Shown: piece by piece, positions 4,528 through 26,856 of the stretch
Layout of the letters: each line of letters starts with the position of its first letter
Numbering within the stretch: the stretch's first letter is position 1
The notes under the pieces: model-generated
What the model saw: the letters and a program-made list of their open reading frames with translations, nothing else
Databases searched by the model: none
What the model was told of the DNA's origin: nothing
Translations under genes and position numbers: made by a program
Source of the DNA: Chloroflexota bacterium
Lineage (GTDB): Bacteria; Chloroflexota; Dehalococcoidia; Lucifugimonadales; JADFKI01
Assembly: GCA_009840355.1 (NCBI GenBank)
Contig: VXNZ01000019.1
Coordinates: forward strand, 101-64,100
Reading direction: 5' to 3'
DNA: 64,000 nt

Positions 4528-4569
4528 CGAGAACATCGGCCGTCTTTCGCGATAATATGTCCGCCCAGC

Positions 4570-5719: not shown

Positions 5720-6136
5720 CTACGTCTCATCCTCGTCTACCATCCGCCGCAGCTCTTCCTTGGCATCCCGTATCTGTTGTATCTTCTCCGCGATGCGGTC
5801 GAAAAGCGGCTGCCGCGCCTTGATGCCCTCTGCTATCAGAAACGCCGCCGCCTCGGAGCGGCTGTTCATGATGCCAGCCTCTACCAGTTCGTCGAGGCGG
5901 TCGAGGCTTGCCTTGTCCACACGCACCATTACCACGTTTTCGCGGTTGCCGCGCATGCCCTGTATCGTGTCGCGCAGGTTCTCGCTGATGCTCTCGGCAG
6001 CGTCCACGCCCGACACAATCGCGCCGCGCACCGTCTTGTTCACTTCGTCCACAATCTCTTCGACATTGTCCGAAATCTTGCGCCTGTCCGCCTTTTGGTC
6101 CTGTCCGTTCTGCTGACTATCCCTCTTCTCATTCAC
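5720..6136 (-). CDS. ribbon-helix-helix (CopG-like) domain protein
   Basis: 138 aa. VVMVRVDKASLDRLDELVEAGIMNSRSEAAAFLIAEGI fits a beta-strand/helix/helix RHH pattern. The N-terminal 60 aa look polar and disordered. GTG start with AAAGGA 8 nt upstream. Confidence 0.55.
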   Translation of the reverse strand: MNEKRDSQQNGQDQKADRRKISDNVEEIVDEVNKTVRGAIVSGVDAAESISENLRDTIQGMRGNRENVVMVRVDKASLDRLDELVEAGIMNSRSEAAAFLIAEGIKARQPLFDRIAEKIQQIRDAKEELRRMVDEDET

Positions 6137-6154
6137 GGCAAGTATCCTTTCACT

Positions 6155-6181
6155 ATTACTAGTAACTAAATTACAAGTAAT
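6155..6181. promoter_or_regulatory. operator-like tandem palindromes upstream of the RHH gene
   Basis: ATTACTAGTAA (perfect palindrome TTACTAGTAA, 6156-6165) and ATTACAAGTAAT (6170-6181), 15 nt centre to centre, 20-45 nt upstream of the RHH start. Confidence 0.35.
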
Positions 6182-6346
6182 TATAGACTACCTCATACGG
6201 CATTTCAACGCACGGCCGGAGATTTTGAACTGACGGCTGTTTACTATCTCATTTGACTTGCGCCCGCGCATTCCCTATCGTTTACCGCATCGTCGCGGCG
6301 CCTCCTGTACGCCTGCGGCGCGCACTAGCAAGCTCGAAAGGACTCA

Positions 6347-7810: not shown

Positions 7811-8007
7811 TCGGGTTGCGGATACCGCAATTCATTCAGAAATTATCGGGCGACTGATTGGATTAATGGTGTGAACGCGGCACATGCGACTGTGTTGAAG
7901 ACCACCTTCCGGGCTAATTCCGTGCCTGCTAACAACGCAGTGTGCTATCCTTCTCATTGGCAGATGAAACTAGCCGCAAGCACGTCAAGTCACAAGACAG
8001 TAGAAAC

Positions 8008-8589
8008 ATGGAAGAACGCACAACACTCGAAGAAACGAATCCGCACACGCAGGGCGCCGAAAACACCGCGCGGCGGCCGCACTGGTACCGCGACTGGATA
8101 TTGCTGGCAACGATAGTCGTCATATTCGTCGCTGATCAGCTGACGAAATTCGCCATCAAGGGGACACTCAGGCTCGGCGAATCCTGGCCCTCCGATGGGT
8201 TCGTGCGCATCACGCACGGAGCGAACACGGGTACGGCGTTCGGATTGCTCCCGAATCAGACACTGTTCCTGATATTCGCCTCCATCATCGCAATCGGCTT
8301 TCTCGTGTATTTCTACCGAGCGTACGCTATGCCGCGACCGATACTGCGCCTCGCCATAGGGCTGCAACTCGGTGGTGCGTTCGGCAATCTATTCGACCGC
8401 GTGGCATTCGGTGCAGTCACCGACTTCATCGATGTAGGCTGGTGGCCCATATTCAACATCGCCGACTCGTCTATCTGTGTCGGCATGGCGACGCTCATCA
8501 TAGTGCTGCTATTCTTCGATCGCCGCCCCGAATCTGATTCTTCACAGAACGCCACGCCGCAGCAAGTCAACAGCCGCGCCGACGAATGA
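8008..8589 (+). CDS. lspA: lipoprotein signal peptidase II
   Basis: Motifs ADQLTK, NTGTAFG, GGAFGNLFDR and FNIADSSI. Start is ambiguous: 7942 in the ORF track, or the ATG at 8008. Confidence 0.9.
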   Translation: MEERTTLEETNPHTQGAENTARRPHWYRDWILLATIVVIFVADQLTKFAIKGTLRLGESWPSDGFVRITHGANTGTAFGLLPNQTLFLIFASIIAIGFLVYFYRAYAMPRPILRLAIGLQLGGAFGNLFDRVAFGAVTDFIDVGWWPIFNIADSSICVGMATLIIVLLFFDRRPESDSSQNATPQQVNSRADE

Positions 8590-9494
8590 ACAACAAAGTG
8601 AGCGGCGAGCAGACATTCGTCGCAGACGCCGACGGCGAGCGGCTCGACAGGTTTCTCGACACCCGCTGCCCTGCCCTTTCGCGCTCAAGAATACAAGCGC
8701 TAATCTCCGGAGGCAGCGTTACGCTAGACGGCAGCGCCGCCAAGCCTTCGACGAAGATTAGGCGCGGTCAGACCGTTTCGCTCAGGATACCGCAGCCGGC
8801 GGAAAGTTCTCTGCGCCCGCAGAACATTCCGCTCACAATCGTCTATGAGGACATCGACCTTCTGGTTGTGGACAAGCCGGCGGGCATGACGGTACATCCT
8901 GCGCCGGGGCATCCGGACGGCACGCTCGTCAACGCGGTACTGGCGCACTGCCCGGACTTGCAGGGCATCGGCGGCACGGTGCGGCCGGGCATCGTGCACC
9001 GTCTGGACAAGGACACATCTGGGCTGATGGTCGTAGCGAAGAACGACCGCGCGCACCGTTCTCTGAGCGACCAGCTGAAGGCGCGCGAGTTTACGAAGGT
9101 GTACATCGCGCTCATGCACGGCAGCGTTACGCCCTCCGAGGCGATAATCAACGCGCCAATCGGCCGCTCACCGGCGAACCGCCAGCGCATGGCGGTCGTT
9201 GACGGCGGTCGAAAAGCAATCACACGCTACCGCGTCCTGCACCACTACCCCTCACACTCGCTCGTGGAAATCCGCCCCACCACTGGCCGCACGCACCAAA
9301 TCCGCGTCCACTTCGCATCGCTAGGCTACCCCCTGGTTGGCGACGCCACCTACGGCAAGGCAGACAATGCGCTGAACCGCCACTTCCTCCACGCCACGAC
9401 ACTAGGCTTCAAGCATCCGAGCAGTGGCGACTACCGCGAGTTTGGCGCGGCGATGTCGGCTGAGTTGGAAGAGTATATGCATGGGGTGCAGTAG
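8586..9494 (+). CDS. rluD: RluA/RluD family 23S rRNA pseudouridine synthase
   Basis: N-terminal S4 domain. Catalytic HRLDKDTSGLMVVAKND, plus TGRTHQIRVH. ATGA overlap with lspA; lspA-rluD synteny is conserved. Confidence 0.9.
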   Translation: MNNKVSGEQTFVADADGERLDRFLDTRCPALSRSRIQALISGGSVTLDGSAAKPSTKIRRGQTVSLRIPQPAESSLRPQNIPLTIVYEDIDLLVVDKPAGMTVHPAPGHPDGTLVNAVLAHCPDLQGIGGTVRPGIVHRLDKDTSGLMVVAKNDRAHRSLSDQLKAREFTKVYIALMHGSVTPSEAIINAPIGRSPANRQRMAVVDGGRKAITRYRVLHHYPSHSLVEIRPTTGRTHQIRVHFASLGYPLVGDATYGKADNALNRHFLHATTLGFKHPSSGDYREFGAAMSAELEEYMHGVQ

Positions 9495-10386
9495 TCGCGC
9501 GGACGGCAGGGTTGCATTGACGCGCGAGATTACCTGCAATGGGACACCATAAGCAACCAAGTTCGTGGAGAAGGGTGACTAGATTGGACTGTCGAGAATC
9601 CTTGCTGGTTGAAGGGGGACATGTCTGCGGCATAGAATGGCACCGAAGTCCACGATCAGGAGACATAAGTTGCTCGACGACTAGATGACGCCGGATGCGC
9701 TTGCCGTTCCCTGGTGGAAAGTGCTTTAGAGCGACTATGTGATGGTGCCGCGACTCAATGAAGAAATGCGGTGCCAGCAAAGACTAGGCATAATTTGTCG
9801 GAATCATGTGCCCAAAAATCTGCTAGATGTACGTAAATGATGCGTAGAAGCTACACCGTCCAACAGGCTGAAACGCCGTGTTTTCGTTGAAGGGCGCCGC
9901 CTATGGGTTCCCACCAATCATGGAAGCGCAGCGAATCGCCATGAACGATATGGTCAGACACGCCTGCGAAATGTTCGGTCGTCGAATTGCCTGCCTACTG
10001 GATGTTGACGCTAATTTGAATGGCGACCCAGCGGAATCCACAGCCCGACATCTGCTGTCCCGTGCTTGGCACCCTGGACTACTGTGTGGATCATGGCGGA
10101 CTGGACGCTCCAGATGGTCGGACCGCTGTGGAAGGCTATCTTGGACCGTCGCCGGAAGAGAACCCTGCGTTGATACCGCCACACGCGTTCTGCGTGGTTA
10201 CTGCCACCACGTGAGGTTCTTCCGTGTGGCTGTTTCTGCGCCCTAAGGGAATGCGATTCGCGTGCAAAGTAGATGCTAGAATTATTGATTGCAGCTATCT
10301 ATGTATGCTTTACCCAACAAATATGTCGTGCTACACTTCTGTATCCAAGATTGCATTAAGATAAGTCTCAGTTTAAGAAAGGGCTT

Positions 10387-13300
10387 ATGACCACTCCGAA
10401 TGACTTCTCAAGCTCCTTAAGTCAGAAAGTTGCAGAATCTTCCGGCGGAAGAGAGGGCGTGTTACGAAACAGGGAACCGATAGCGATTGTGGGCATGGCG
10501 TGCCGATTTCCTGGCGCGGAGAACCTCGATGCCTTCTGGCAGCTACTGGAAGAAGGCGGAAACTCCGTAACAGAGGGAGTCCCCGGCTCCGGCGTTGGAA
10601 GGCTGGCAGATGTAATCCGAGACCCATCGGTCCAACTGGAGGCTTGCCGATACGGCGCCTTCGTGGACGATATTGATATGTTCGATGCGGCGTTCTTCCG
10701 CATCTCGCCTGTCGAGGCGGAATTGCTGGACCCGCAGCAGCGCATGATGCTGGAAACCAGCTGGGAGGCGCTTGAGGACGCGGGAATCGACCCGCTGAAG
10801 CTGAAGCACAGTCTCACCGGCATGTACACCGGAATCAGCAACGACGAGTACCGTATGCTGGTGCTGGACACGAGCCGCCCGACGGAGGCTGCGGGAAGCC
10901 TGTACGCGCTCAGCGGCACAAATCTTAACGGCACGGCAGGGCGTGTCTCTTTCGTGCTGGGTCTGATGGGGCCGGCGAAAGCGGTGGACGCCGCCTGCGC
11001 TTCTGCGCTCGTAGCCGTGAATGATGCGGTGTCGGACCTTCAGCAGGGGAAAGCCGACCTAGCCATCGCCGCCGGGGTGCAGGCAATTCTGAACGGCCGC
11101 ATTTACGAGCTTCGCGCGGAGGCAATGATGCTGTCCCCTGAAGGGCAGTGCAAGACATTCGATGCCTCAGCCGACGGGTATGTGCGGGGCGAGGGATGCG
11201 GAGTCATCGTACTGAAGCGGCTGTCCGACGCTGAGCGCGACGGCGACCGAATATGGGCGGTCATCAAGGGTTCTGCCGTCAACCACGGCGGGGACAGCGT
11301 TGGGTTGACCGTACCGAATCCTCCGGCGCTGAAACAGGTGATGGAAATAGCATTGTCGGACGCAGGCGTAAGCCCGTCGGATGTGGATTTCCTCGAAGCG
11401 CACGGAACGGGAACTGCGGTTGGCGATCCGATAGAGCTTGAAGCCGTTTCTGAGGTCTATTGCAATGGACGCACGGCTGACAACCCGCTCCTTATCGGCT
11501 CAGTGAAGACGAACATCGGGCACCTTGAATCCGCCGCGGGAATCGCCGGACTGATCAAGGCGGCGCTGGCATTGAAGCACCGCATTATACCGAAGCAGCT
11601 GCATTTCAACGACCCCAACCCGCGTGTTGACTGGGACAATCTGCCGCTCAAAGTGACAACGGAGCACGTTGACTGGCAGCGCCGGGGCGACCGTCCCAGG
11701 GTGGCAGGAGTGAACTGCTTTGGGATATCCGGCACGAACTCCCACATTGTGATGGAGGAGTACACCGACACCGAGACGGAGACTTCACAGGATATTTTGA
11801 TTGCAGGCTCGGCGCAGAAGGTCGCTGTTTCATTGCCCGCATCTGTACCAGACCTGCGAGCGCCGGACGGTGAGCTTGAGCAGCGCCGGACACGTTTCCT
11901 GCCCCTTTCGGGCAAGTCAGACGGCGCGCTGCGAGACCTCGCCAGGCGGTATCTGTCGTGGCTCGATGAACGGCAGGCCCATATCTCTTCCGACGGCGTC
12001 GCATCGGGTCCGATGCTGTCGGACATGTCATGGGCGGCGGGCGTAGGTCGCAGCCACTTCGAGCGACGCGCGGGGGCAGTGTTCCGAGACGCTGCGTCAC
12101 TGCGGGCATGTCTGAGTGATCTTGCCGAATCCGACACGACCGTTGAACCCCAAACGGCGAACAAGGTAGCATTCATCTACACTGGACAGGGCAGCCAGTG
12201 GGTCGGGATGGGACAGGCGCTTTACGAGAGCGAGCCTGTGGCGCGGGCGGTGATGGACCGCTGCGAGGAAGTGTTCAGGCAGGTCAGGGGCGTGTCGCTG
12301 CTGGATGTGATGTTCGGGCGGAACGGCGCGAACGAAAATCTGGGCGACACGGCTTGGGAGCAGCCCGCACTTTATACTTTGGAGTGCGCGCTGACCGCGC
12401 TCTGGTCGAGCGTGGGCGTGCGCCCAAGTGTGGTGCTGGGGCATAGCGTTGGCGAAATTGCCGCAGCGCAGGCCGCAGGCGTTTTCAGCCTCGAAGACGG
12501 AATGAGGTTTGCCGCCGCGCGCGGCGCGCTGATGTCGCAGATGGAATACGGCACTATGGCTGCCATATTCGCGCCGCCCGAGCAGGTGGCGGCGGAGGTT
12601 GAAGCGCACAACGCAGCGTCTGACGGCGTTGGATTGAGCGTTGCAGCAGACAACGGTGCGCATCAGGTGGTCAGCGGGCCCGTTGAGGACATCGCAGCCA
12701 TCGTCGAGCGATTCGAGACGCTTGAAATTCGCGCTCGGCGATTGAACACGAGCAAGGCGTTCCACAGCGCCCTGGTCAATCCGATCCTGAGGGGACTGGA
12801 AGACGCGCTGAGCGGTCTGGAAATTAAGTCTCCCACGCTGACTGTTGTCAGCAACCTGACGGGGCGTGCAGTAGAGCCGGGCATGGCGCTGGACGTAGAA
12901 TACTGGAAGCGACATGCCCGTGAAGCAGTTGCATTCGCCAGCGGCGTAAGGGCAATGGCGGCAGAGGGTGTTGATGTTGTGGTGGAGATTGGGCCGCACG
13001 ACATTCTCGGCACGATGGCGACTCTTGCATGGCCATCCGAAGACGCATCCGGTCCGCCGCCGGCGTTAGCCAGCCTGCGCCGACCTCTGAGGGACGGTTC
13101 ATCCCCGGAGCCGGAGAGCAGTTTCATAGACGCGGTCGCCGCAGCATACGAAGCGGGACTGGACATATCCTTCGAGGGGCTGTTTGCGGGAGAGAAGCGT
13201 CGCCGGATCTCGCTGCCGAGCTACCCGTTCCAGCGCGAACGCTATTGGGCGGAGCAGACAAGGCAGCGCCGTCAGAGCGCGGGGCATCCGCTGCTGGGCG

Positions 13301-16300
13301 AGCGGCACGAGTCGGCTCGTGGCGAGATTATGTATGAGACGGAAGTGTTCCCGTCAGACCCGGCATGGCTGAACGACCACCGCGTATTCGGGCGGCTGGT
13401 AGCGCCGGGCGCGCTGTACGGGGCAATGGCGACTTCTGCGACGCTCGCCGAAGGAAGCGGCCCGATTGTCGTCGAAGACTTTCAGCTGCACAATCCGCTT
13501 GTCTTCGCCGAGAGTGATTCGGATGACGGCTCGAATGAACCGGGCAGGACTGTTCAGGTCGTACTGGATGATTCCGAGCAGGTCGCGTCAAGCAGCGTCC
13601 AGATATTCAGCAAGGGCGCTGAAAACGAATGGATTCTGCACATTGAAGGGCGTGTGTCGTCAGGGGCACAGGCGCCGGAAGCCGGAGGGCGAGTTGACCT
13701 CGATGCGCTGAAGGCCCGGCTTTCGCCTGCGGATGTGCCAGACTACTACCGCGCAAAGGCTGACACGGGAATCAACCTGGGGCCGTTCTTCCGCACGCTG
13801 GGGAATGTCTGGTCCGCGCCGGGTGAGGCGCTGGGCGAAGTGATTCTGCCGGAAGCGGCGGGGCGCAACGACCTTGATGTGCATCCGCTGGTGATGGACG
13901 GCTGCTTCCAGGTCGTCGGTGTGGCGCGGAATATGACGGGCGCGCCGGGTGAGGCGACATATCTGCCGTTCGGCTGGGAAAGATTCTGGCTGACGAGGCA
14001 GATGCCGGACAAGTTGCTCTGCCACGTAATCATGAGCGAGTCATCCGTGGCATCGGACCCCGAATCGGAGGAGCAGCCTGAAGTCCTGAGCGGGGAGATG
14101 CGGATTTACGATCTGAGCGGTGTTCTCATCGGCGGATTTACAGGCTACACGGTGAAGCGCGCCACGCGCGCCGCTCTGCTTTCGGCGTTCGAGGGCGTTG
14201 ACGACCTACTCTACGAGATTGACTGGCGAGACCGCCCTCTTGAATCCGGGCTTATGTCCGCCGATTTCTTCCCGCGACCGTCTGTTGTCGCTGATAGTTC
14301 GGAACTATTCCCCGAATATCTCACCGGCGCAGGAGTCGATCCGCAGGGCAGGAACGAGCTGCTCGCGGACATGGAGTGGTGGTCGCGTTCTTACGCGCTC
14401 CGAACGCTGGAGAAGCTCGGTTGGCGGCGCACACCGGGCGATATATTCAAGCACAATGAGCTGCGAGAAGAACTGAATGTCAACCCTGAGCACAACCGCC
14501 TCTTTCTGAGGATGCTGGAAATGCTTGCCCAGTCCGAGGTGCTTGAGCAGAGGGATGAGGGCTTTCTGGTGCTGGTTGGCGAGGGCGAGCCGCTTCCGGC
14601 CGGACTTACGGAAAGTCCAGAAGAGTTCGACAAGCAGATGGTCGAGAAGTATCCGCATGGCCTGACCGAGACAGGGCTTTTCAGGCGATCCGGCGCGGCG
14701 CTGGCGGACGTGCTTCGTGGTCAGGAAGACCCGCTGACACTGCTGTTCAGCAGCGGCGAACCGACGGCGGCAGACCTGTACTTGAAAGCACCGGTCGCAC
14801 GCGCGGCGAACCGCATGCTCGCGGAGGCAATGCGTGAACTTATCGCCCGACTTCCTGAAGACAGAAGATTGCGGATTGTAGAGATTGGCGCCGGCACGGG
14901 TTCGGCGACCGCTTCTGTGCTGCCGGAACTACCGGAAGGTCGGTTCGACTACGTGTACACGGACATCTCGGCAGGCTTCTTCGCGGAGGCTGAGGCAAGG
15001 TTCGGTGATGGGGACGGCTGCATCGAGTACCGCACTCTGGACATCGAGAAAGACCCAATCGCGCAGGGCTTCGACGCGCACGGATACGACATAGTGCTCG
15101 CCTCGAATGTGTTGCACGCGACACGCTATCTACAGGAGACGCTGGGGCACTGCCGCGACCTGCTCTCGCCGTCCGGTCAACTGGTCGCTCTGGAGAACCT
15201 GCGCGGGCTGGGCTGGATGGACCTCACATTCGGTCAGCTTGACGGCTGGTGGCGGTTTGCTGACGATTACCGCCCGCACCACGCTCTAGCTACTCCCGCA
15301 ATCTGGCGTCAGGCGCTAGGGGATGTGGGATTTGTGGAGGTCGAGGTACTTGGCGTTGACGATTCGTTCACGCACGAAATGCTGGACAAGGGCGTGATAG
15401 TAGCGCAGGGGCCCGCTCAGGTAACGGAGCAGCCGGGCGTGTGGGTTCTTGCGGGCGACAAGGGCGGGTTCGCTGAAGAACTCGTAGAGGCAATGGCAGC
15501 GCGGAACCAAACGGTCGTGCTTGGCGACAGCGGCGAGGCCCGCGAGTCGTGGCAATCTCTGATTGAGGGACTGCCCGAAGACGCGCCGTTCAAGGGCGTG
15601 GTGTATCTGGAAGCCCTTCAAGGTCATGGAGCGCAGGCTACAACTGGCGAGATCGCGGAGGATGTGAAGCGTGTCGGCGCCAGGGCGCTTGCGATGGTGC
15701 AAGGACTGTCTGACTCTGACGTGATACCGGAAAATGGCGTCTGGTTCATAACGCGTGGCGCGCAGGTTCTGGAGCGTGAGCTTACGGGCGAGTTGGCGGG
15801 CGCGACGCTATGGGGGCTGGGAAAAGTCGTTACGCTTGAAGCGCCCCATTTGCAACCACGAATGATAGACCTCGATCCCATAGTGGCCAATTCGCTATCA
15901 GGCCTCGTGAACGACCTGATGTACCCGGACCATGAGAACCATATTGCGTATCGCTTGGGTCGCCGGATGGCTGCTCGCCTTGTACGTCCGGACACCACAT
16001 CGGAGCGCCTGACACTGCCGGAGAACTCGGAATGGGTGCTTGCGCCGCACCGGGATGGCGTGTTCGACAAGCCGGAAATCAAGGCGCTTCCCATCCGCAC
16101 ACTGGAACCGAGAGAAGTTCTGGTATCGGTCGAAGCCACAGGACTGAACTTCTGGGACGTGTTCCGCTCGCTGGGCTTCATTGAAGACGGAGACCTAGGT
16201 AGAGAGCTGTGCGGTTATGTCCTCGATATTGGCTCGGATGTGACAAATGTATCCATCGGCGACCGCGTAGTTGGGCTGGGCTTTGGCGCTTTCGCGCCTG

Positions 16301-19300
16301 AAATGGTCACGCACTCGGAACTGGTTGCGCCCGCGCTGGACGGCATATCCGTGTCGAGCCTTGCCACGATCCCCAGCGCGTTCGTGTCGGCGGCGCTCTC
16401 ATACCATTACTCCGGTCTTGAACCCGGCGACCGCGTGCTCATTCACGCAGGATCGGGAGGCGTGGGGCTGGCAGCAATTCAGCTGGCGCAGGCCGCGGGC
16501 GCTGAGGTGTTCGCTACCGCGAGCGCACCCAAGCAGGCATATTTGCGCTCACTGAGCGTCGAGCATATATACGACAGCAGACAGACCAAGTTCGGTGAGG
16601 AGATACTTGCTGACACGGGCGGCGAGGGTATCCACGTGGTGCTTAACAGCCTGACGAGTGAAGGATTCATCGACGCCAGCCTGGCCTGCCTCGCTGAGGG
16701 CGGGCGATTCGTGGAGCTTGCGAGACGCGACATCCTCACCCACGAAGAAATGGCAGAGCTGCGTCCGGATGTGAAGTACGACATCCTCGAACTGGATGTA
16801 CTGAAAAAGACCGAACCGGAGTGGGTCGGGGAAGTGCTGCGCGAAGTTATGGCGGGCATTTCGACGGGCAAACTGAAGCCGATTATCCACAGCAGGTGGC
16901 CGCTCGCCGAGGCAGGCGCTGCCCTGTCATTCATGCGCTCTGCGCGGCACATCGGCAAGATTGTGCTGACCCCGCCCTCGATCACGAACGGACAGGTGCG
17001 GCAGGATCGCACATACCTCGTCACAGGCGGTCTGGGTGGCATAGGAATCGCGGTTGCCGAATGGCTGGCAGACCACGGTGCCGGCACGATAGTGTTGAAC
17101 GGCCGCCGAGACGCTGATCCGGAGGCGCAGGTAGCCATCGAAGCTTTGCGTGGCCGCGGCATCAAAGTCGAGGTCGAACTGGCTGACATGACTGACACGG
17201 CGGCGATAGATGCGATGCTGGAGCGCATGGACGCGAACTATTCACCACTGGGCGGCGTGATTCACAGCGTTGGCGTGCTGTCGGACGCCGCGCTCACAAA
17301 TCAGAGCTGGGAAAGGTTCGAGCAGGTGCTATCCCCGAAGATTGTGGGGGCGTGGCACCTGCACCGCGCGACAATGGACCGCGACCTGGATATGTTCATC
17401 CTGTTCTCAAGCAGGGTCGGCGTTATGGGCAATCCGGGTCAGGCGAACCACGCCGCCGCCAATGCGTTCCTAGACCAGCTCGCCGGACATCGGCGCGCGC
17501 TGGGCCTGCCGGGGCAGGCGATTGCGTGGGGAGCGTGGTCAGAGATTGGCGAAGCCGCGGAGCAGCGGGAACGGATTGAGGAACGGCGTGCCGCACTCGG
17601 CGGACGCTGGTTTACGCCACAACAGGGTATCAGGGCACTGGAAAGGCTGGTGCGTGAGGACACCACTGCATCCGTGGTGATGTCAATGGACTGGTCGGTA
17701 TTCGAGGAAGCGGTCGAGGACCGTCCCGCGTTGCTGGAGGACATGCTGTCCTCACTGGCCGATGATGCAACCGACCCGGCATCGTCGGAAGACCTGCTGA
17801 CCCAATTGCGGGTAACGATTGCGCCCGTGGGCGAGCAGGAAGAACTGCTAGTGTCTTTCTTGCAGCAGGAGTTGCAGGCAGTGTTGAGGCTGTCAACGGC
17901 ACCGTCCCCGACGGTCGGGTTCTTCGACCTCGGCATGGACTCACTCATGGCAGTGGAGTTTCGGAATCGGCTGAACCGCGCATTTGCCGGCGAGTACACC
18001 GCATCCAATACTGTAGTCTTCGACTACCCGGACATTGCCAGCCTTGCGGGTCATCTCGCCGAAGAACTCGGTCAACTTGGCGATTCTCCGCCGGCACCTG
18101 AGCCAGCAGTTCCAGAAGAGCCTCAGCAGACCAGCAACGACGAAGACGGAATCGCGATCGTTGGTATGGCATGCCGCTTCCCGCAATCGAAGAACCTGTC
18201 AGAGTATTGGCAGCTATTGGAATCCGGCACTGACGCGGTTACTGACGGACGTCAGGGCAATGGGATTGCGCCTGATATGCGCGGTGCATTCATTGAGGAC
18301 ATCGAGTGGTTTGACTCACGCTTCTTTCGCATATCTCCGATGGAAGCTCGCATGATGGACCCGCAGCAGCGGATGATGCTTGAAACGAGCTGGGAGGCGC
18401 TTGAAGATGCGGGCATCGATCCTGACGGACTGCGAGGCAGCCAGACCGGGGTGTACGCCGGAATCGGCGGCAGCGAATACCGCGATGTGATAGAAAGCAG
18501 CGGCAAGTCAGGAAATTACCTTGGGACAAACGCGAGCGTAGCGGCAGGGCGGATAGCATTCGCTCTTGGTCTGGAAGGCCCCGCGATGGCAATCGATATG
18601 GCGTGCGCTTCGGCGCTTGCAGCAGTGCATCAGGCCGTATCCGGCTTGCAGCGCGGGGAAGTCGATCTTGCCCTTGCCGGAGGCGTCCATGTCGTGCTCT
18701 CGCCTTCCGTCTCGGACTTCATGACGGAGTTGGGCATTCTATCCAAGAGCGGGCAGTGCAGCCCCTTCGATGCGTCCGCAGACGGCTACGTGCGCGGCGA
18801 AGGGTGCGGCGTGATAGTGCTGAAGCGTCTGAGCGATGCGGAGGCGGACGGAGACCGGATATGGGGCGTCATCAGAGGCTCCGCCGTCAACCAGAACGGA
18901 GTGAGCGCGGGATTGACCGTTCCCAACGGCCAGGCGCAGGAGCGCGTCATGGAAGCCGCTCTTGCACAGGCGGGCTTCTCAGGAGCCGATGTTGACTATC
19001 TCGAAGCGCATGCCACAGGCTCGCAGCTGGGCGATGCAATTGAAGCGCATGCCATAGGCTCGGTGTACGGCAAGGACCGTGAAGCGGAACGACCTCTGCT
19101 GATGGGGACGGTGAAGTCCAACATCGGACATCTGGAAGCTGCGGCGGGAGTCGCAGGCGTTATCAAGACTGTGCTCGCCATGAAGCAGGGCGTCATTCCC
19201 AAGCATCTGCACTTCGATAACCCGAATCCGCAGATAGAGTGGGCTTCGATGCCCGTGCGGATAACTTCCGAGCAGACCGACTGGCCCAGACACGCCGATA

Positions 19301-20652
19301 GACCGCCGCGCGCAGCTGTGAGCGCGTTCGGCATTTCGGGCACGAATGCACATGTTGTGCTGGAGGGCTACGGCAACTCGACAGCCAACGGAACATCAGA
19401 GCACGGAGCGCAGTCTTTCGTGGGTTCTGAAAAGCAGGTGCCGGTCTCCCTTCCTGAGCAGGTGGCGGACAGGCCCGTATCTATGGACGGACTGGAAGAG
19501 CGCGTCGCACGCTTCCTGCCATTGTCCGGCAAGTCGGACGGCGCTCTGCGGGACCTGGCCGGACAGTACATGTCCTGGCTTGACGAGCACGACAACGGTT
19601 CGACACCGGCAGCACTGACACCGCAATCCCTTGCGGATGCGGCATGGATGGCGAGCGTAGGACGCAGCCACTTCGACTATCGCGCGGGGGTGGTTTTCAG
19701 CGACGCCGAGTCAATGAGGGAAGGCCTTGCCGGAATCGTCGAAACGAACGGCGCATCCGACGGCGCTGAACCGCAGCCTGTGGCGAGGGTTGCCTTCCTG
19801 TACGCAGGCGACGGCAGCCAGTGGGTTGGCATGGGCAGGGCGCTTTACGACAGCGAACCGGTCGTGCGCGCTGTGCTGGACAGATGCGATGCCGTTGTGC
19901 GTGCCGAGCGGGGCAGTTCGCTGCTCGACGTGATGTTCGGCAGTCCAGGAGGCGCGGGCGACTTGAGCGACGCGGCGTGGGCGCAGCCTGCGCTCTACTC
20001 GCTGGAATGCGCGCTTACCGCCCTCTGGGCAAGCATCGGAATTCGTCCGAATTCGGTTCTGGGTCATGGCACAGGCGAAATCGCCGCGGCACAGGCGGCG
20101 GGCGTGTTCAGCCTGGAAGACGGCCTGCGGTTCACTCTCGCTCGCAGCACGCTGATGGCGGTGCTGCCCGGGGTTGACCCGAACCAGTCCTTGATGGGAC
20201 TGGAGGTGGCTTTCAACGACATTTCGGTCGCGTCTCCTTCGCTGACAATGATCAGCGGGGTTACGGGACAGGTGATCGATTCCAGCGTGCTGCCTGACTG
20301 GGAATACTGGCGCAGGCAGGCACGTGAGTCCGCCGCGCTTGACGTCTGTGCCTCCACGCTCGCGGAACTAGGGGTGAACCTAGTGCTGGAAGTCGGACAT
20401 GAGCCGATTCAGGGACGGACGATTAGCGGCTACTGGCCTGAGTCTGCCGGAGTGCCGACTATGATTTCCACTGCTGCGAGGACATCCGCAGATGGACAGT
20501 CGCTGGAATTCGATGATGCATTTGTGAGAGCGGCGGCGGCGGCGTACGAGTCGGGATTGGATATTTCATTCTCAGGGTTGTTTGCTGGTGAGTCCCGCCG
20601 TCGGGTCTCTTTGCCGACATATCCGTTCCAGCGTAGGCACCATTGGATATAG
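10387..20652 (+). CDS. type I polyketide synthase / FAS-like megasynthase, KS-AT-DH-cMT-ER-KR-ACP-KS-AT(inactive)
   Basis: 3421-aa ORF. All domain signature motifs were read directly; see the domain sub-features. Confidence 0.97.
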   Translation: MTTPNDFSSSLSQKVAESSGGREGVLRNREPIAIVGMACRFPGAENLDAFWQLLEEGGNSVTEGVPGSGVGRLADVIRDPSVQLEACRYGAFVDDIDMFDAAFFRISPVEAELLDPQQRMMLETSWEALEDAGIDPLKLKHSLTGMYTGISNDEYRMLVLDTSRPTEAAGSLYALSGTNLNGTAGRVSFVLGLMGPAKAVDAACASALVAVNDAVSDLQQGKADLAIAAGVQAILNGRIYELRAEAMMLSPEGQCKTFDASADGYVRGEGCGVIVLKRLSDAERDGDRIWAVIKGSAVNHGGDSVGLTVPNPPALKQVMEIALSDAGVSPSDVDFLEAHGTGTAVGDPIELEAVSEVYCNGRTADNPLLIGSVKTNIGHLESAAGIAGLIKAALALKHRIIPKQLHFNDPNPRVDWDNLPLKVTTEHVDWQRRGDRPRVAGVNCFGISGTNSHIVMEEYTDTETETSQDILIAGSAQKVAVSLPASVPDLRAPDGELEQRRTRFLPLSGKSDGALRDLARRYLSWLDERQAHISSDGVASGPMLSDMSWAAGVGRSHFERRAGAVFRDAASLRACLSDLAESDTTVEPQTANKVAFIYTGQGSQWVGMGQALYESEPVARAVMDRCEEVFRQVRGVSLLDVMFGRNGANENLGDTAWEQPALYTLECALTALWSSVGVRPSVVLGHSVGEIAAAQAAGVFSLEDGMRFAAARGALMSQMEYGTMAAIFAPPEQVAAEVEAHNAASDGVGLSVAADNGAHQVVSGPVEDIAAIVERFETLEIRARRLNTSKAFHSALVNPILRGLEDALSGLEIKSPTLTVVSNLTGRAVEPGMALDVEYWKRHAREAVAFASGVRAMAAEGVDVVVEIGPHDILGTMATLAWPSEDASGPPPALASLRRPLRDGSSPEPESSFIDAVAAAYEAGLDISFEGLFAGEKRRRISLPSYPFQRERYWAEQTRQRRQSAGHPLLGERHESARGEIMYETEVFPSDPAWLNDHRVFGRLVAPGALYGAMATSATLAEGSGPIVVEDFQLHNPLVFAESDSDDGSNEPGRTVQVVLDDSEQVASSSVQIFSKGAENEWILHIEGRVSSGAQAPEAGGRVDLDALKARLSPADVPDYYRAKADTGINLGPFFRTLGNVWSAPGEALGEVILPEAAGRNDLDVHPLVMDGCFQVVGVARNMTGAPGEATYLPFGWERFWLTRQMPDKLLCHVIMSESSVASDPESEEQPEVLSGEMRIYDLSGVLIGGFTGYTVKRATRAALLSAFEGVDDLLYEIDWRDRPLESGLMSADFFPRPSVVADSSELFPEYLTGAGVDPQGRNELLADMEWWSRSYALRTLEKLGWRRTPGDIFKHNELREELNVNPEHNRLFLRMLEMLAQSEVLEQRDEGFLVLVGEGEPLPAGLTESPEEFDKQMVEKYPHGLTETGLFRRSGAALADVLRGQEDPLTLLFSSGEPTAADLYLKAPVARAANRMLAEAMRELIARLPEDRRLRIVEIGAGTGSATASVLPELPEGRFDYVYTDISAGFFAEAEARFGDGDGCIEYRTLDIEKDPIAQGFDAHGYDIVLASNVLHATRYLQETLGHCRDLLSPSGQLVALENLRGLGWMDLTFGQLDGWWRFADDYRPHHALATPAIWRQALGDVGFVEVEVLGVDDSFTHEMLDKGVIVAQGPAQVTEQPGVWVLAGDKGGFAEELVEAMAARNQTVVLGDSGEARESWQSLIEGLPEDAPFKGVVYLEALQGHGAQATTGEIAEDVKRVGARALAMVQGLSDSDVIPENGVWFITRGAQVLERELTGELAGATLWGLGKVVTLEAPHLQPRMIDLDPIVANSLSGLVNDLMYPDHENHIAYRLGRRMAARLVRPDTTSERLTLPENSEWVLAPHRDGVFDKPEIKALPIRTLEPREVLVSVEATGLNFWDVFRSLGFIEDGDLGRELCGYVLDIGSDVTNVSIGDRVVGLGFGAFAPEMVTHSELVAPALDGISVSSLATIPSAFVSAALSYHYSGLEPGDRVLIHAGSGGVGLAAIQLAQAAGAEVFATASAPKQAYLRSLSVEHIYDSRQTKFGEEILADTGGEGIHVVLNSLTSEGFIDASLACLAEGGRFVELARRDILTHEEMAELRPDVKYDILELDVLKKTEPEWVGEVLREVMAGISTGKLKPIIHSRWPLAEAGAALSFMRSARHIGKIVLTPPSITNGQVRQDRTYLVTGGLGGIGIAVAEWLADHGAGTIVLNGRRDADPEAQVAIEALRGRGIKVEVELADMTDTAAIDAMLERMDANYSPLGGVIHSVGVLSDAALTNQSWERFEQVLSPKIVGAWHLHRATMDRDLDMFILFSSRVGVMGNPGQANHAAANAFLDQLAGHRRALGLPGQAIAWGAWSEIGEAAEQRERIEERRAALGGRWFTPQQGIRALERLVREDTTASVVMSMDWSVFEEAVEDRPALLEDMLSSLADDATDPASSEDLLTQLRVTIAPVGEQEELLVSFLQQELQAVLRLSTAPSPTVGFFDLGMDSLMAVEFRNRLNRAFAGEYTASNTVVFDYPDIASLAGHLAEELGQLGDSPPAPEPAVPEEPQQTSNDEDGIAIVGMACRFPQSKNLSEYWQLLESGTDAVTDGRQGNGIAPDMRGAFIEDIEWFDSRFFRISPMEARMMDPQQRMMLETSWEALEDAGIDPDGLRGSQTGVYAGIGGSEYRDVIESSGKSGNYLGTNASVAAGRIAFALGLEGPAMAIDMACASALAAVHQAVSGLQRGEVDLALAGGVHVVLSPSVSDFMTELGILSKSGQCSPFDASADGYVRGEGCGVIVLKRLSDAEADGDRIWGVIRGSAVNQNGVSAGLTVPNGQAQERVMEAALAQAGFSGADVDYLEAHATGSQLGDAIEAHAIGSVYGKDREAERPLLMGTVKSNIGHLEAAAGVAGVIKTVLAMKQGVIPKHLHFDNPNPQIEWASMPVRITSEQTDWPRHADRPPRAAVSAFGISGTNAHVVLEGYGNSTANGTSEHGAQSFVGSEKQVPVSLPEQVADRPVSMDGLEERVARFLPLSGKSDGALRDLAGQYMSWLDEHDNGSTPAALTPQSLADAAWMASVGRSHFDYRAGVVFSDAESMREGLAGIVETNGASDGAEPQPVARVAFLYAGDGSQWVGMGRALYDSEPVVRAVLDRCDAVVRAERGSSLLDVMFGSPGGAGDLSDAAWAQPALYSLECALTALWASIGIRPNSVLGHGTGEIAAAQAAGVFSLEDGLRFTLARSTLMAVLPGVDPNQSLMGLEVAFNDISVASPSLTMISGVTGQVIDSSVLPDWEYWRRQARESAALDVCASTLAELGVNLVLEVGHEPIQGRTISGYWPESAGVPTMISTAARTSADGQSLEFDDAFVRAAAAAYESGLDISFSGLFAGESRRRVSLPTYPFQRRHHWI
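10474..11763 (+). other. PKS domain KS1 (ketosynthase)
   Basis: IAIVGMACRFPG. Active-site Cys in DAACASAL (codon 10996-10998). EAHGTGTAVGDPIE and NIGHLESAAG. Confidence 0.95.
12166..13020 (+). other. PKS domain AT1 (acyltransferase, active)
   Basis: FIYTGQGSQWVGMG. GHSVGE with the Ser codon at 12445-12447. The KAFHSA motif is xAFH-type, as in malonyl-specific ATs. Confidence 0.9.
13285..14165 (+). other. PKS domain DH (dehydratase)
   Basis: HPLLG...LNDHRVFGRLVAPGALY (the HxxxGxxxxP motif) and a downstream DGCFQ-type region. Confidence 0.85.
14620..15355 (+). other. PKS domain cMT (C-methyltransferase)
   Basis: SAM motif I RIVEIGAGTGSAT, then DIVLASNVLHAT and SPSGQLVALE. Sits between DH and ER, as in the methylating modules of reducing PKSs. 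Confidence 0.85.
16027..16975 (+). other. PKS domain ER (enoylreductase)
   Basis: MDR-type fold. NADPH motif VLIHAGSGGVGLAAIQLAQAAGAEVFATAS. C-terminal HIGKIVL. Confidence 0.9.
17008..17553 (+). other. PKS domain KR (ketoreductase, catalytic subdomain)
   Basis: TYLVTGGLGGIGIAVA Rossmann motif. VLSDAAL (LxD, B-type-like). SSRVGVMGNPGQANHAAANAF. A structural pseudo-KR half lies at about 15433-15990. Confidence 0.9.
17836..18070 (+). other. PKS domain ACP (in cis)
   Basis: FFDLGMDSLMAVEFRNRL, with the phosphopantetheine Ser codon at 17941-17943. Confidence 0.9.
18145..19372 (+). other. PKS domain KS2 (ketosynthase, Cys-His-His retained)
   Basis: IAIVGMACRFPQ. DMACASAL with the Cys codon at 18604-18606. 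EAHATGSQLGDAIE (His kept, flanks diverged). NIGHLEAAAG. Confidence 0.92.
19789..20400 (+). other. PKS domain AT2 (degenerate, predicted inactive AT0)
   Basis: FLYAGDGSQWVGMG. The GHSxG nucleophile elbow reads GHGTGE (Gly codon ggc at 20068-20070). The region that carries the xAFH motif in AT1 is shortened and lacks it. The post-AT linker LPTYPFQRRHHW ends the protein. Confidence 0.8.
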
Positions 20653-20752
20653 GGCCATTAATATTTGTGCCTAATGTATGGACAAGAGTGAAGGTACAGT
20701 GATACCTTATTGGTTGTCTTGATAAACTATTGAGCATAGGAGGCTTGAACAG

Positions 20753-20998
20753 ATGGCATCAATTGAAGATAGGGTAAGGAAGCTAATAGCCGACAATCTG
20801 GAAGTGGACGGTAAGCCTGTGGACGCGTCGATGGACCTCGGTTCCAGCCTTACGGACGCTGGGGTGTCTTCGATGGACATAGTGTCGTTCGCCCGGGTTA
20901 TTCAGGACGAATTTGGCATCAGGTTCTCGGCTGAACACTGCACCGAACTCCAGACCATCGGGCAGTTGATAGACTACCTTGACTCGAATGCTGCTTAG
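20753..20998 (+). CDS. discrete acyl carrier protein
   Basis: 81 aa with a four-helix carrier pattern. LTDAGVSSMDIVSFARVIQDEF, with the candidate Ser codon at 20870-20872. Lies 100 nt downstream of the PKS. Confidence 0.8.
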   Translation: MASIEDRVRKLIADNLEVDGKPVDASMDLGSSLTDAGVSSMDIVSFARVIQDEFGIRFSAEHCTELQTIGQLIDYLDSNAA

Positions 20999-21028
20999 CG
21001 CCGCGTATGCGGAACTGAACAACGCAGA

Positions 21029-21730
21029 ATGACTGATTCCGCAACGCATTGCTGGTGGAGTCTCTTCCGAACAATTGGCAACGTAACGGTATTACATATT
21101 GATCTGACGCCTCATGCTCAACATGAGGCGTCAGCGCTTTTGTGGCTCCATGAAAATGAACTGGAAGATTCGTGCAATTATGTGCACTTAAGTGCGCGCC
21201 GAAGGTTTGTGCTATGCCGTGGGGCGCTCCGCGCCATACTCTGTGGCAACCTAGGCTGCGATAACGAGCGGCTGACGTTTGGCGAACACCGTTACGGTAA
21301 GCCTTTTGCCCTGGTGGACGCTATTCGGGCGCAGATCAGTTTCAATGTGAGCCACAGCGGTAGTCATGGGCTAATTGCGGTCGCGCCTGGCGGGCAGTTG
21401 GGCGTGGACGTCGAAGAGCTTGCGACAAGACGTGACTTCGACAGGCTGATCGAGGCTGCATTTGGTCCCAACGAGCAGTCTGAACTGAAATTGGAGCGGG
21501 TACGAGGTGAGTTCCGGCTTTTCTTCAAGCTCTGGACAGTCAAGGAGGCGCTAATCAAGGCGCTTGGGACCGGTCTTTCATTGGATCCCGCGGCGTTTGA
21601 GGCACCTGAGGAGATACGCCGCGGTGAGACTGTCGGCACGTTCTGGTTTCCTCAGGTACCGTCGGTGAGGTGGCGCGTAGTAGATATTGGCAACGAGGAA
21701 TTCGCCGCCGCTCTCGCCTTTGCTGTGTGA
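21029..21730 (+). CDS. Sfp-type 4'-phosphopantetheinyl transferase
   Basis: GKPF, FNVSHSGSHGLIAV, GVDVEEL and FFKLWTVKEALIKALG (the WxxKEAxxK motif). Confidence 0.85.
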   Translation: MTDSATHCWWSLFRTIGNVTVLHIDLTPHAQHEASALLWLHENELEDSCNYVHLSARRRFVLCRGALRAILCGNLGCDNERLTFGEHRYGKPFALVDAIRAQISFNVSHSGSHGLIAVAPGGQLGVDVEELATRRDFDRLIEAAFGPNEQSELKLERVRGEFRLFFKLWTVKEALIKALGTGLSLDPAAFEAPEEIRRGETVGTFWFPQVPSVRWRVVDIGNEEFAAALAFAV

Positions 21731-21798
21731 TTCTTAGGCAGTTGATATATGATACTGCCAGTGAATAGGGTCTGATCAAAAGATTTAAGGATGCGACG

Positions 21799-22704
21799 AT
21801 GACCTCAGCGATCGGATGGAAGGTTCCCGAGCCGCTTTCAACGTATGACGTGCAGGTTGACGACGAGACCACAATTACCTTGCGGCGGCACGGTAACCCG
21901 GACGGTCCCCGACTCGTCCTCAGTCACGGCAACGGTCTGGCGATCGATCTCTATTACCCTTTCTGGTCACTTCTGCGGAATGACTTCGATATCATAGTCT
22001 ATGATCTCCGAAACCATGGCTGGAACGCAGTCACTTCGTTGCAGAGTCACAACATTCCTACTCTGGTTCAGGACCACGATAAGGTCTTGGAGGCTATTGA
22101 CATTGAGTATGGTGACAAGCCGAAGATAGGCATTTATCACTCTGTTTCGGCTCTGGTTACTCTTCTGTCTCCCCGGAATGGTAGCGATTTTGCCGCGCGT
22201 GTGCTGTTCGATCCACCACTCTGCAAGCCTGGTCGCAGCCACAGGGAATTTGAAGAGGCCGCCAAGCAGTTGTCCTCCACCTCTCGCGGGAGGATGGCGC
22301 GATTTAAGAACAGGGAAGACTTCGCATTCCTACTCTCGTTCTTCCCGATTTTTGAACTCATAGTGCCGGGAGGCCACGACCTCTTTTCCATGACAACCCT
22401 GAAGGAAAACAGTCTCGAAAAGCTCTATGAACTGTGTTGCCCGCCCGCATACGAAGCACAGATAATTGAGTACGCGGGCGCGTTCGCGGTTCTCGTGGAC
22501 TTCGCTTCGCAGGTCAGCCCAACAAAGGTAATTGGCGCCGATCCGACATTGCCATTCTCATACCTACCGACTCTGGATCTCAGCGATGTCTTCACGGTTG
22601 GATACGACTTCCTGCCTGATTCCACGCACTTTTTGCAGTTGGAACAGCCGGAGCAGTGCGTGGAACTGATGCTTGAATTCATCGAGCCGATAATCTCGTC
22701 CTGA
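21799..22704 (+). CDS. alpha/beta hydrolase fold protein (candidate chain-release enzyme)
   Basis: Oxyanion HGNG. Nucleophile elbow reads GIYHSVSA (non-canonical GxSxG). C-terminal STHFLQLEQPE (catalytic His region). Confidence 0.65.
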   Translation: MTSAIGWKVPEPLSTYDVQVDDETTITLRRHGNPDGPRLVLSHGNGLAIDLYYPFWSLLRNDFDIIVYDLRNHGWNAVTSLQSHNIPTLVQDHDKVLEAIDIEYGDKPKIGIYHSVSALVTLLSPRNGSDFAARVLFDPPLCKPGRSHREFEEAAKQLSSTSRGRMARFKNREDFAFLLSFFPIFELIVPGGHDLFSMTTLKENSLEKLYELCCPPAYEAQIIEYAGAFAVLVDFASQVSPTKVIGADPTLPFSYLPTLDLSDVFTVGYDFLPDSTHFLQLEQPEQCVELMLEFIEPIISS

Positions 22705-22758: not shown

Positions 22759-24507
22759 CTACGCATCGACCCGCACGGTCACGATGTCCATGCCATAATA
22801 TTTCTGGTGGCGCACCGATGACGCGTAGTGCCTTAACAGGCGGAATGAAATTTCCCTGTCGTCAATTGTCTCTTCCTCATCGTCTAGGTAAGCGAGGCGG
22901 TCTCCCAGGTTTTCGCCATCCACAAGCACGGAGACAAATTCCAGATCGACGGTCCGACCGTCCTGTCGGGCTATGATGACAAGGCGTGGGATGTTGTCGG
23001 TTCTGCCAGCCGAAAGGTGTTCGTTTCCAGGTTGCAGCAGGCTGGACAGCGCCTCCTCAGACGCTGAGCGGAGCCGCTGTGTCGATTCCTCACTCCAGCT
23101 CATTTCTGTTGCCACCTCCCGCGCGAATTCATCGATCGCCGGCAGATTGGCAAGGTCGAGTCTGGTTTCCAGGCGCCTCGGGCGCGGACTCGTCAGGTTC
23201 AGGAATATAGTGAGAAGGATTGCGGTCGCCGCGCCCGCTGTTATTCCGTTTCCCAGCAGCGCCCCCCAGGGATGCCCCAGCAATTCCTCAATTATGTTCC
23301 GCTGAAGCAGCCCCGCTCCCACGGCAAATGACAGACCCACTACAATCGACTTCTCTAGGTTTAGGCCGTCCCTCATTATGGTCTGTAAGCCTTCGACAAA
23401 GAAAATGCCCAGTGCAACCAGCAGGAAAGCGCCCATTACGGGGGTCGGTATCGTCAGCAGCGCCCCCGTCAACTTTGGGAGCAGCGCCAGTCCAATGAGT
23501 ATGATCGCTATGGCGTATCCGACGTAGCGAGACGCCACTCCCGTGATATTGACAAGCGATGCGGTGAAGGACGAGTATGACGACGTGGGAGGCGTACCCG
23601 CAATCCCTGACAAGAATATGCCAATGCCGTTAGCGTATATCGATCCCTGCAGCAGTCGAAAATCAGTAGATCTCAGACTTCGCCGCGCCGTCCGCTGAAT
23701 CACGACATTGTCGCCGACCCCCTTGATAGCCTGCACCAGAGTTACGATCAGAAACATTGGCAGGAGCGTCCAGAATCCTGCGCCCAGCCGAAGATCCAAT
23801 CCTTGAATGCCGGTCTCAGGAATGCCAATCCAAGGTGCTGAGTACAGCCGCTCAAGGTCGTAGACTCCCAGTATGGCCGCCATGATGCAGCCTGAAACGA
23901 ACCCGATTAGCATTGACCACGGTCGCAGTTGGCGCGGTGCGCGCAGAACTAAACCTGTCGCGACGAGAAGTGTAACAACGGCTACCAGAGGACCGGCAAA
24001 TGACGGCGCGCCCGTGGGAACTTCGTCGAATCGGTCGAGGCAGAATGGCAGCACCGAGACGGCTATTAGCATCAATACGGTGCCTGACACTGTTGGAGTC
24101 ACAACACGCCTCAACTGCGGCAGCCAGGTAGCCACCGCGAAGAAGAAGAGCGCGGAAACGACCATCAGGCTTGCAAGCATCGCTGGTCCGCCCTCTGCCA
24201 GCGCGAGCACTGCCAACGCTATGTAATTAGGCGTAACTCCTGTCACTGCCATGTGCCCGGTGCCCAAGCGTCCTATGCGCGAAGCCTGAAGTGCGGTGAC
24301 GATAGCCACGATTATCAAGGCGGCGAACATTGACCATGTCAGGTAGTCGTCGTCCTGTCCCGCCGAAAGAACTGTAACCACGACAATCGAAATCGCGGGT
24401 GGCAGAACGAGCAAAATACCCTGTATACCCACTACGAAAGATGTCAGTATTGAGCACCTTTCTTCCGGTTCGTAGCGGATGTGGTCATTTGATTGAGCTG
24501 TTGCCAA
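22759..24507 (-). CDS. NCS2 (xanthine/uracil/vitamin C permease) family transporter with extra C-terminal cytoplasmic domain
   Basis: About 430 aa of polytopic membrane domain with an NCS2-like pattern, plus about 140 aa of soluble C-terminus with RsbW/SpoIIAB-like spacing (weak). Confidence 0.7.
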   Translation of the reverse strand: MATAQSNDHIRYEPEERCSILTSFVVGIQGILLVLPPAISIVVVTVLSAGQDDDYLTWSMFAALIIVAIVTALQASRIGRLGTGHMAVTGVTPNYIALAVLALAEGGPAMLASLMVVSALFFFAVATWLPQLRRVVTPTVSGTVLMLIAVSVLPFCLDRFDEVPTGAPSFAGPLVAVVTLLVATGLVLRAPRQLRPWSMLIGFVSGCIMAAILGVYDLERLYSAPWIGIPETGIQGLDLRLGAGFWTLLPMFLIVTLVQAIKGVGDNVVIQRTARRSLRSTDFRLLQGSIYANGIGIFLSGIAGTPPTSSYSSFTASLVNITGVASRYVGYAIAIILIGLALLPKLTGALLTIPTPVMGAFLLVALGIFFVEGLQTIMRDGLNLEKSIVVGLSFAVGAGLLQRNIIEELLGHPWGALLGNGITAGAATAILLTIFLNLTSPRPRRLETRLDLANLPAIDEFAREVATEMSWSEESTQRLRSASEEALSSLLQPGNEHLSAGRTDNIPRLVIIARQDGRTVDLEFVSVLVDGENLGDRLAYLDDEEETIDDREISFRLLRHYASSVRHQKYYGMDIVTVRVDA

Positions 24508-26762: not shown

Positions 26763-26856
26763 TATACACTACTCGTTCCAAAGCACGACCGATGGACGAA
26801 CCGGATGGGCAATATACGTCGTTGTGTCTAATGTGCGTTGTGGTACAATCCCCAGC

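Follow-up and report, generated by a model that had tools for sequence, protein, structure and literature searches.

Contig VXNZ01000019.1 of a Chloroflexota bacterium carries, within the 64,000-nt stretch analysed here (the window, to whose positions all coordinates refer), a compact gene cluster built around a type I polyketide synthase (PKS). Its architecture, primer motifs, habitat, spread among bacteria and permease place this locus very probably among the Sup (sponge symbiont ubiquitous PKS) clusters. The synthase combines ketosynthase (KS), acyltransferase (AT), dehydratase (DH), C-methyltransferase (cMT), enoylreductase (ER), ketoreductase (KR) and acyl carrier protein (ACP) domains, the second, vestigial acyltransferase being written AT0. 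The genes, with the Sup positions that they would occupy, are these:

10387..20652, + strand: SupA-like type I PKS, 3421 aa, KS-AT-DH-cMT-ER-KR-ACP-KS-AT0 (open reading frame and Pfam domains)
20753..20998, + strand: discrete AcpP-like ACP, 81 aa, SupB position (PP-binding, E 2e-11)
21029..21730, + strand: Sfp/HetI-type 4'-phosphopantetheinyl transferase (PPTase), 233 aa, SupC position (ACPS and AASDHPPT_N)
21799..22704, + strand: alpha/beta hydrolase, 301 aa, SupD position (Abhydrolase_6)
22759..24507, - strand: convergent NCS2/xanthine-uracil-family permease, SupE position (Pfam, Xan_ur_permease)

The four same-strand genes follow one another with intergenic gaps of 30-100 bp. A first-pass annotation of this DNA had proposed a 3421-aa PKS at 10387-20652, and the open reading frame calls reproduce its coordinates exactly. 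A domain search with Pfam hidden Markov models (HMMs) confirms the KS-AT-DH-cMT-ER-KR-ACP-KS-AT order that it had given, including the cMT, ER and KR assignments, as well as the ACP, Sfp-type PPTase and alpha/beta hydrolase downstream on the same strand. The extent that it had assigned to the cluster, 10387-22704, covers these four genes correctly and omits the conserved convergent permease at 22759-24507. As it had also observed, no loading didomain, FAAL, TE, cyclase, glycosyltransferase or P450 adjoins the cluster.

In the PKS protein, the Pfam domains lie at residues 30-407 (KS, E 1e-155), 596-875 (AT), 967-1264 (DH), 1478-1652 (methyltransferase), 1908-2194 (ER), 2209-2386 (KR, E 1e-60) and 2492-2557 (PP-binding), and the C-terminal part holds a second KS, a KS-AT linker of the CurL/RhiE type (3043-3118) and a second AT. 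Chance domain matches are excluded, since E-values are as low as 1e-155. The corresponding stretches of the gene and the motifs found in them are as follows:

10474..11607, + strand: KS1, with Cys in DAACAS, His in HGTGT, His in GHLE, and DPQQR
12172..13011, + strand: AT1, with GQGSQ, GHSVG, Arg and KAFH, active by its motifs
13285..14178, + strand: DH, with HxxxGxxxxP (HRVFGRLVAP) and DGCFQ conserved
14818..15342, + strand: C-methyltransferase, with the S-adenosylmethionine (SAM) motif EIGAGTG, the NVLHAT His and the LENL Glu conserved
16108..16968, + strand: ER, with the NADPH motif HAGSGGVG
17011..17544, + strand: KR, with the Rossmann motif GGLGGIG, Lys, Ser and Asn kept, and His at the catalytic Tyr position
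17860..18057, + strand: integrated ACP1, with LGMDSL
18139..19401, + strand: KS2, a paralogue of KS1 (limits approximate)
19513..19740, + strand: KS-AT linker domain, CurL-like/RhiE-like (Pfam)
19777..20526, + strand: AT0, vestigial acyltransferase
20527..20652, + strand: post-AT linker ending in YPFQRRHHWI, followed by the stop codon

The DPQQR and HGTGT motifs of KS1 start at residues 115 and 339. When the window protein was aligned with the PKSs of 53 related loci (n=54), the catalytic motifs of KS1, AT1 (Ser and Arg), DH, cMT, ER (GGVG) and the serine of ACP1 were found to be conserved, and so were the Rossmann motif, Lys, Ser and Asn of the KR. AT1 carries the xAFH motif family-wide and, by the established motif rules for AT substrates, is predicted to be of the malonyl type. 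Mean identity is 79% in the KR, 70% in KS2 and 52% in AT0, the lowest value; the regions other than AT0 stay at 60-80% across phyla.

KS2-AT2 is 56% identical to KS1-AT1 over 696 aa, and the pair is an old duplicate of KS1-AT1. AT2 has GHGTG where AT1 has GHSVG, a glycine replacing the nucleophilic serine, and GDGSQ where AT1 has GQGSQ; it also lacks a stretch of about 80 residues that bears the xAFH histidine. Having lost both the serine motif and this stretch, AT2 is therefore unable to load an extender unit, and the same features vindicate the AT0 label proposed in the first-pass annotation. Among the 54 PKSs the nucleophile position of AT0 is never a serine, and in several relatives (L020, L052, L029, L062, L079, L083, L021 and L023) internal deletions shorten the domain. 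KS2, for its part, retains its Cys (DMACAS), its first His (HATGS) and its second His (GHLE) in 54 of 54 PKSs. The tail beyond the second histidine ranges from 248 to 512 aa and always keeps its terminal YPFQRRxHW motif, even where AT0 is deleted. Since the triad and the overall identity of KS2 are kept while AT0 is degenerate, KS2 is best read as a condensing enzyme under selection and AT0 as a structural vestige: the AT is apparently being lost while the linkers that stabilize the KS persist.

The KR shows another departure from the usual pattern. A catalytic tyrosine is found in every textbook KR; here the corresponding position (aa 2355, nt 17449-17451) is a histidine, the segment GQANHAAAN aligning with GQGAYAAAN of Mycobacterium tuberculosis MAS, which is the best match of known structure to this domain (E 7.5e-47). 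The substitution is a family trait, present in 53 of the 54 PKSs, L028 alone having Tyr. A search with the KR against 1.84 billion representative proteins, of which the best 150 were examined, yielded 19 KR copies with His and 336 with Tyr. A Sup-like cMT lies upstream in the same module for 12 of the 19 His-type KRs and for 1 of the 336 Tyr-type KRs (Fisher p ~1e-16, a value that overstates the evidence because the sequences are mutually related and the cMT HMM was built from the window PKS's own family). This distribution suggests an active His-type KR subtype linked to C-methyltransferase modules. That the KR is simply dead was considered and rejected: it is the most conserved catalytic domain, at the 79% mean identity given above, and its cofactor motif, Lys, Ser and Asn are kept. 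Some multi-modular PKSs of 3100-5500 aa (P0403, P0404, P0406-P0409 and P0442), whose KRs are 55-63% identical to that of the window, contain both types, His in the KRs of cMT modules and Tyr in those of the remaining modules. The Sup module may be derived from such multi-module proteins or be related to them.

At least 90% of 76 homologues of the discrete ACP share its GVSSxD serine motif, and the best scores of this ACP are obtained with AcpP-type models, though they fall below the model cut-offs. The best NCBIfam match of the PPTase is HetI. Inside the 5' part of the PPTase open reading frame lies a perfect 13-bp inverted repeat with a 5-nt loop (21104-21134: CTGACGCCTCATG CTCAA CATGAGGCGTCAG); in the relative L001, one gene caller places the PPTase start downstream of this repeat, giving 182 aa against 233 aa. 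The hydrolase has a Ser115 (in the xHSxS elbow), Asp248 and His277 triad and an HGNG loop, all invariant among its relatives, which would make it a competent serine hydrolase or acyltransferase. The permease, 582 aa when counted from a TTG start, has a C-terminal extension of about 145 aa past the transporter core (22759-23200) without a family match, the Pfam and TIGR matches ending near aa 401 and aa 437, respectively.

The arrangement of these genes turns out to be widespread. At E<=1e-5, 3582 relatives of the hydrolase were found, the best 120 of which are all at least 64% identical to it. In a scan of one genome per species, a relative was present in at least 598 species-representative genomes. 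The best 80 of these are all metagenome-assembled genomes (MAGs) and fall into about eight named lineages: Dehalococcoidia/SAR202, Binatia, Thermodesulfobacteriota, Dadabacteria, Acidobacteriota, Latescibacterota, Acidimicrobiia and Gemmatimonadota. In 82 loci that were inspected, the PKS, ACP, PPTase and hydrolase genes are colinear in 42, the others being rearranged or ended by contig edges, and the permease directly adjoins the hydrolase in 53. The permease is thus associated with the cluster through conserved adjacency. The KS-AT0/ACP/PPTase/hydrolase arrangement is therefore not confined to the window but is the standard layout of a very large family, and the novelty given to it in the first-pass annotation was overstated.

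Not every copy is complete. In L005 (OZ241923.1, a Dehalococcoidia chromosome, 1-13000), where the hydrolase is 93% identical to that of the window, an ACP-PPTase-hydrolase(-permease) set occurs with no PKS within about 9 kb upstream, and the same holds for L006-L008, L014, L015 and L022. The PKS lies about 6 kb downstream in L066 and L078, and on the opposite strand in L031, L034, L039, L054 and L072. The accessory genes can thus be separated from the synthase.

Sponges recur among the sources of these genomes. Sponge origin was traced for several of the MAGs inspected, one relative being the SAR202 bin90 from Aplysina aerophoba. The RHO, IRC and COS bin names match host genera of the coral-reef demosponge study of Robbins 2021, and a relative with a 99% identical permease is found on a ROBB21 scaffold from the same demosponge data (JAPP assembly series). 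The host of the window is probably a Chloroflexota (Dehalococcoidia/SAR202-like) sponge symbiont, and its cluster an intact, ordinary member of a known family.

PKSs of MAGs labelled as different phyla are 76-92% identical (L042/L082, L080/L084, L036/L064 and L072/L031), with 89-92% between Gemmatimonadota and Latescibacterota, 82% between Acidobacteriota and Binatia and 76% between Acidimicrobiia and Dehalococcoidia. Such cross-phylum pairs are closer than many pairs inside Dehalococcoidia. This suggests horizontal transfer among sponge symbionts or, in part, errors of binning or labelling.

Sup PKSs are unusual, small, monomodular enzymes that dominate the KS amplicons of high-microbial-abundance (HMA) sponges. 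The primers KSDPQQF and KSHGTGTR, which target the DPQQ and HGTGT motifs, overwhelmingly recover supA, and SUP gene cluster families have been described in MAGs of Chloroflexota, Spirochaetota, Proteobacteria and Acidobacteriota regardless of taxonomy. The window PKS likewise is a small mono-modular reducing PKS with a C-methyltransferase, the product being unproven in both cases; its KS1 has the primer motifs (DPQQR and HGTGT); the habitat, HMA-sponge microbiomes, and the spread over several bacterial phyla are shared; and a permease gene accompanies both, of 582 aa in the window and 557 aa for SupE. No difference was detected in the features compared, the reference SupA-E having been compared by description rather than by sequence. 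The sup order is reportedly supA (a PKS with a terminal KS-AT), supB (ACP), supC (PPTase), supD (hydrolase) and supE (permease), the order also seen in the window. The first reports are said to have named Deinococcus-Thermus or Poribacteria as hosts, in contrast to the Dehalococcoidia-like genome that bears the window copy. The sup cluster (SupA-E) is attributed to Fieseler et al. 2007.

Two other bacterial systems were weighed and set aside. The mycobacterial MAS, like the window PKS, is a FAS-like reducing type I synthase for methyl-branched saturated acyl chains, and both release their product through a separate enzyme, with no fused TE. However, MAS contains no cMT, its branches coming from methylmalonyl-CoA, whereas in the window PKS a SAM-dependent cMT accompanies a malonyl-type AT motif; MAS also lacks the second KS-AT0 and the discrete ACP, and its KR has the canonical Tyr in place of His. 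Membership of the MAS type was rejected on the presence of the cMT and on the GHSVG...KAFH signature of AT1, which is malonyl-type rather than methylmalonyl-specific. The likeness to both Sup and MAS suggested by the first-pass annotation therefore stands for Sup and falls for MAS-like branching. The second system, swf (sponge widespread FAS-like PKS, SwfA-C), also belongs to sponge symbionts, in which it is the other widespread mono-modular PKS/FAS, likewise of unknown product. SwfA has the order KS-AT-DH-ER-KR-ACP, without a cMT, and the KS motifs DPQ(I/V)R and HATGT; its downstream genes encode a reductase-sulfotransferase (R+ST, swfB) and a radical SAM enzyme (swfC). The cMT, the DPQQR and HGTGT motifs of KS1 and the ACP, PPTase and hydrolase genes downstream led us to reject this assignment as well.

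The KS-AT-DH-cMT-ER-KR-ACP order is identical to that of the fungal highly reducing PKSs of the LovB type, which also form SAM-derived methyl branches and which iterate with programmed methylation. This identity, the presence of LovB among the PDB matches and the fact that one complete module is present raise the question whether module 1 could work iteratively throughout, programmed like LovB to build the entire chain with methylation in a single cycle; KS2 and the discrete ACP would then act only as a chain-length gate and off-loading relay, adding no carbon themselves. We consider this rather improbable. KS2 holds both malonyl-decarboxylation histidines throughout the alignment, which a pure transfer domain would not need, and the KS-AT regions match bacterial modular cis-AT PKSs (CurL, E 4e-176) far better than they match LovB (5e-95). 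The two synthases also differ at the C-terminus, a condensation domain in LovB and KS-AT0 in the window PKS, and in their partners, a trans ER for LovB and a discrete ACP for the window PKS.

We thus return to the Sup-type lipid cluster, which is the best explanation overall and which we hold to be probable in the following stepwise form. What is read from the DNA is the domain complement and the conserved catalytic residues; from there on, we infer the steps. The PPTase would activate both carriers. KS1, AT1 and ACP1 would extend an acyl primer with malonate, the cMT would methylate the alpha carbon of the beta-keto intermediate, and KR, DH and ER would reduce it fully, giving a 2-methyl-branched saturated acyl-ACP1; module 1 may run once or several times. 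The chain would then be handed colinearly to KS2, which would condense it with malonate carried by the discrete ACP. Because AT0 cannot load malonate, AT1 or FabD would supply this carrier in trans. On the free carrier the chain would be reduced and elongated further, with reductions supplied either by the synthase's own reductive loop or by the type II fatty acid synthase (FAS), so that the methyl branch comes to lie mid-chain, and the hydrolase would release or transfer the completed saturated acyl chain with its methyl branch. A hexanoyl primer, for example, lengthened by one methylated unit and then by four C2 units, would give 10-methylhexadecanoate, a typical mid-chain methyl-branched fatty acid (MBFA) of sponges. 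MBFAs are indeed the published product hypothesis for Sup; compounds such as 10-Me-C16:0 are abundant in HMA sponges, their producers being unresolved. The self-contained, lipid-type, C-methylating, fully reducing and Sup-like pathway foreseen in the first-pass annotation is supported by the domain calls, the conserved motifs and the relatives in sponge MAGs.

Several observations weigh against this scheme. The link between Sup and MBFAs is correlative in the literature, and the searchable literature yielded no demonstration of a Sup product. Reductive domains are absent from module 2, and nothing in the DNA signals that the KS2 product gets reduced. With a histidine at the catalytic Tyr position, the activity of the KR is an assumption. 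Alpha-methylation followed by C2 extensions places branches on even carbons only, which fits 10-Me-C16 and 10-Me-C18 but not 9-Me-C16 or 11-Me-C18, both of which are also reported in sponge lipids. The hydrolase gave only weak, generic alpha/beta-hydrolase matches in a PDB sequence search (the best, KAI2-like, at E 2e-4), and its AlphaFold model has a pLDDT of 41, from an alignment of 24 sequences that are all at least 64% identical. Thousands of homologues were retrieved with the hydrolase, with the permease and with the amplicon region of KS1, and none bears a Sup name (SupA-E of pAPKS18 or pSW1H8) or is a named Sup KS amplicon; the cluster-member look-up for the window PKS returned only generic MAG names, and the supplements of the two Della Sala papers contain no Sup sequences.

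The bare second module and the odd-numbered branches bear on a different use of the same Sup-type cluster, in which KS2 and the discrete ACP would form a terminal non-reducing module that adds a last malonate, and the hydrolase would free a 3-oxo acid, to be used as such or decarboxylated to a methyl-branched methyl ketone. Module 2 indeed lacks KR, DH and ER domains, KS2 retains the residues for decarboxylative condensation, the releasing enzyme has an alpha/beta hydrolase fold, and decarboxylation would move the branches to odd carbons, positions also seen in sponge lipids. Nevertheless, the sponge lipid literature examined reports no abundant 3-oxo acids or methyl ketones, the published correlation of Sup with MBFAs favours ordinary saturated acids, and the flavin monooxygenase encoded nearby is not conserved in other phyla. 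On balance we regard this terminal condensation as unlikely, though it is the most serious competitor of the stepwise scheme.

A further reading of the Sup-type cluster may be put forward tentatively. SupA would be a branch-insertion cassette rather than a self-sufficient synthase of branched fatty acids, and its module 1 would lengthen a medium-chain primer by just one C2 unit, methylated and fully reduced; the AT-less KS2 would pass the chain to the AcpP-like free carrier, and type II fatty-acid synthesis would finish it, leaving the methyl group mid-chain. The KR with His for Tyr would be a distinct active subtype, specialized for alpha-methyl-beta-ketoacyl substrates, because the histidine tracks cMT modules in other PKSs too.

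The surroundings of the cluster bear on one last possibility, namely that the locus encodes an orphan cis-AT PKS, unrelated to Sup, whose product is a bioactive secondary metabolite, or that it is a decaying remnant. AT0 is degenerate, and in PDB searches the KS and AT resemble modular antibiotic PKSs. Yet the locus contains no tailoring or resistance genes, nor loading or TE functions; decay is confined to AT0, the active sites being otherwise conserved; and many of the 82 inspected loci carry this compact set of genes as well (at least 598 genomes bear the hydrolase). We give this possibility almost no weight.

The genes on both sides of the cluster have housekeeping or catabolic functions. 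Upstream lie genes for a MATE transporter, LspA and RluD. Downstream (24606-31550) come a GLUG-motif protein, a flavin-containing monooxygenase, possibly of the Baeyer-Villiger type, a luciferase-like monooxygenase and a sulfatase. The flavin monooxygenase, the luciferase-like monooxygenase and the sulfatase were considered as cluster members and rejected, being kept only in the closest relatives (L001, L085-086); the downstream GLUG, monooxygenase and sulfatase neighbours thus probably lie outside the cluster. Scans for promoters and terminators gave no signal above shuffled expectation. GC content is 0.59-0.63 in the PKS gene (10001-20000) against about 0.55-0.60 in the flanks, and 0.555 in the accessory genes; GC skew is strongly positive in the PKS gene (+0.07 to +0.15) and roughly zero in the flanks. 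The PKS protein is present in NCBI nr, under a generic name, from a Chloroflexota MAG, and other records hold a 3397-aa form with a start codon 24 codons further downstream.

Nothing at this locus is categorically new. Its value lies in a complete, apparently functional copy of the cluster, seen in a long-contig context, and in the mechanistic constraints that the family provides. Mid-chain MBFAs serve as biomarkers of sponge symbionts and of ancient sediments. The comparison of the family members yields several testable points, namely a KS2 that appears to be under selection beside a vestigial AT, an AcpP-like free carrier, a His-type KR and a cluster that may move between phyla, and these points narrow the mechanistic hypotheses for Sup function.

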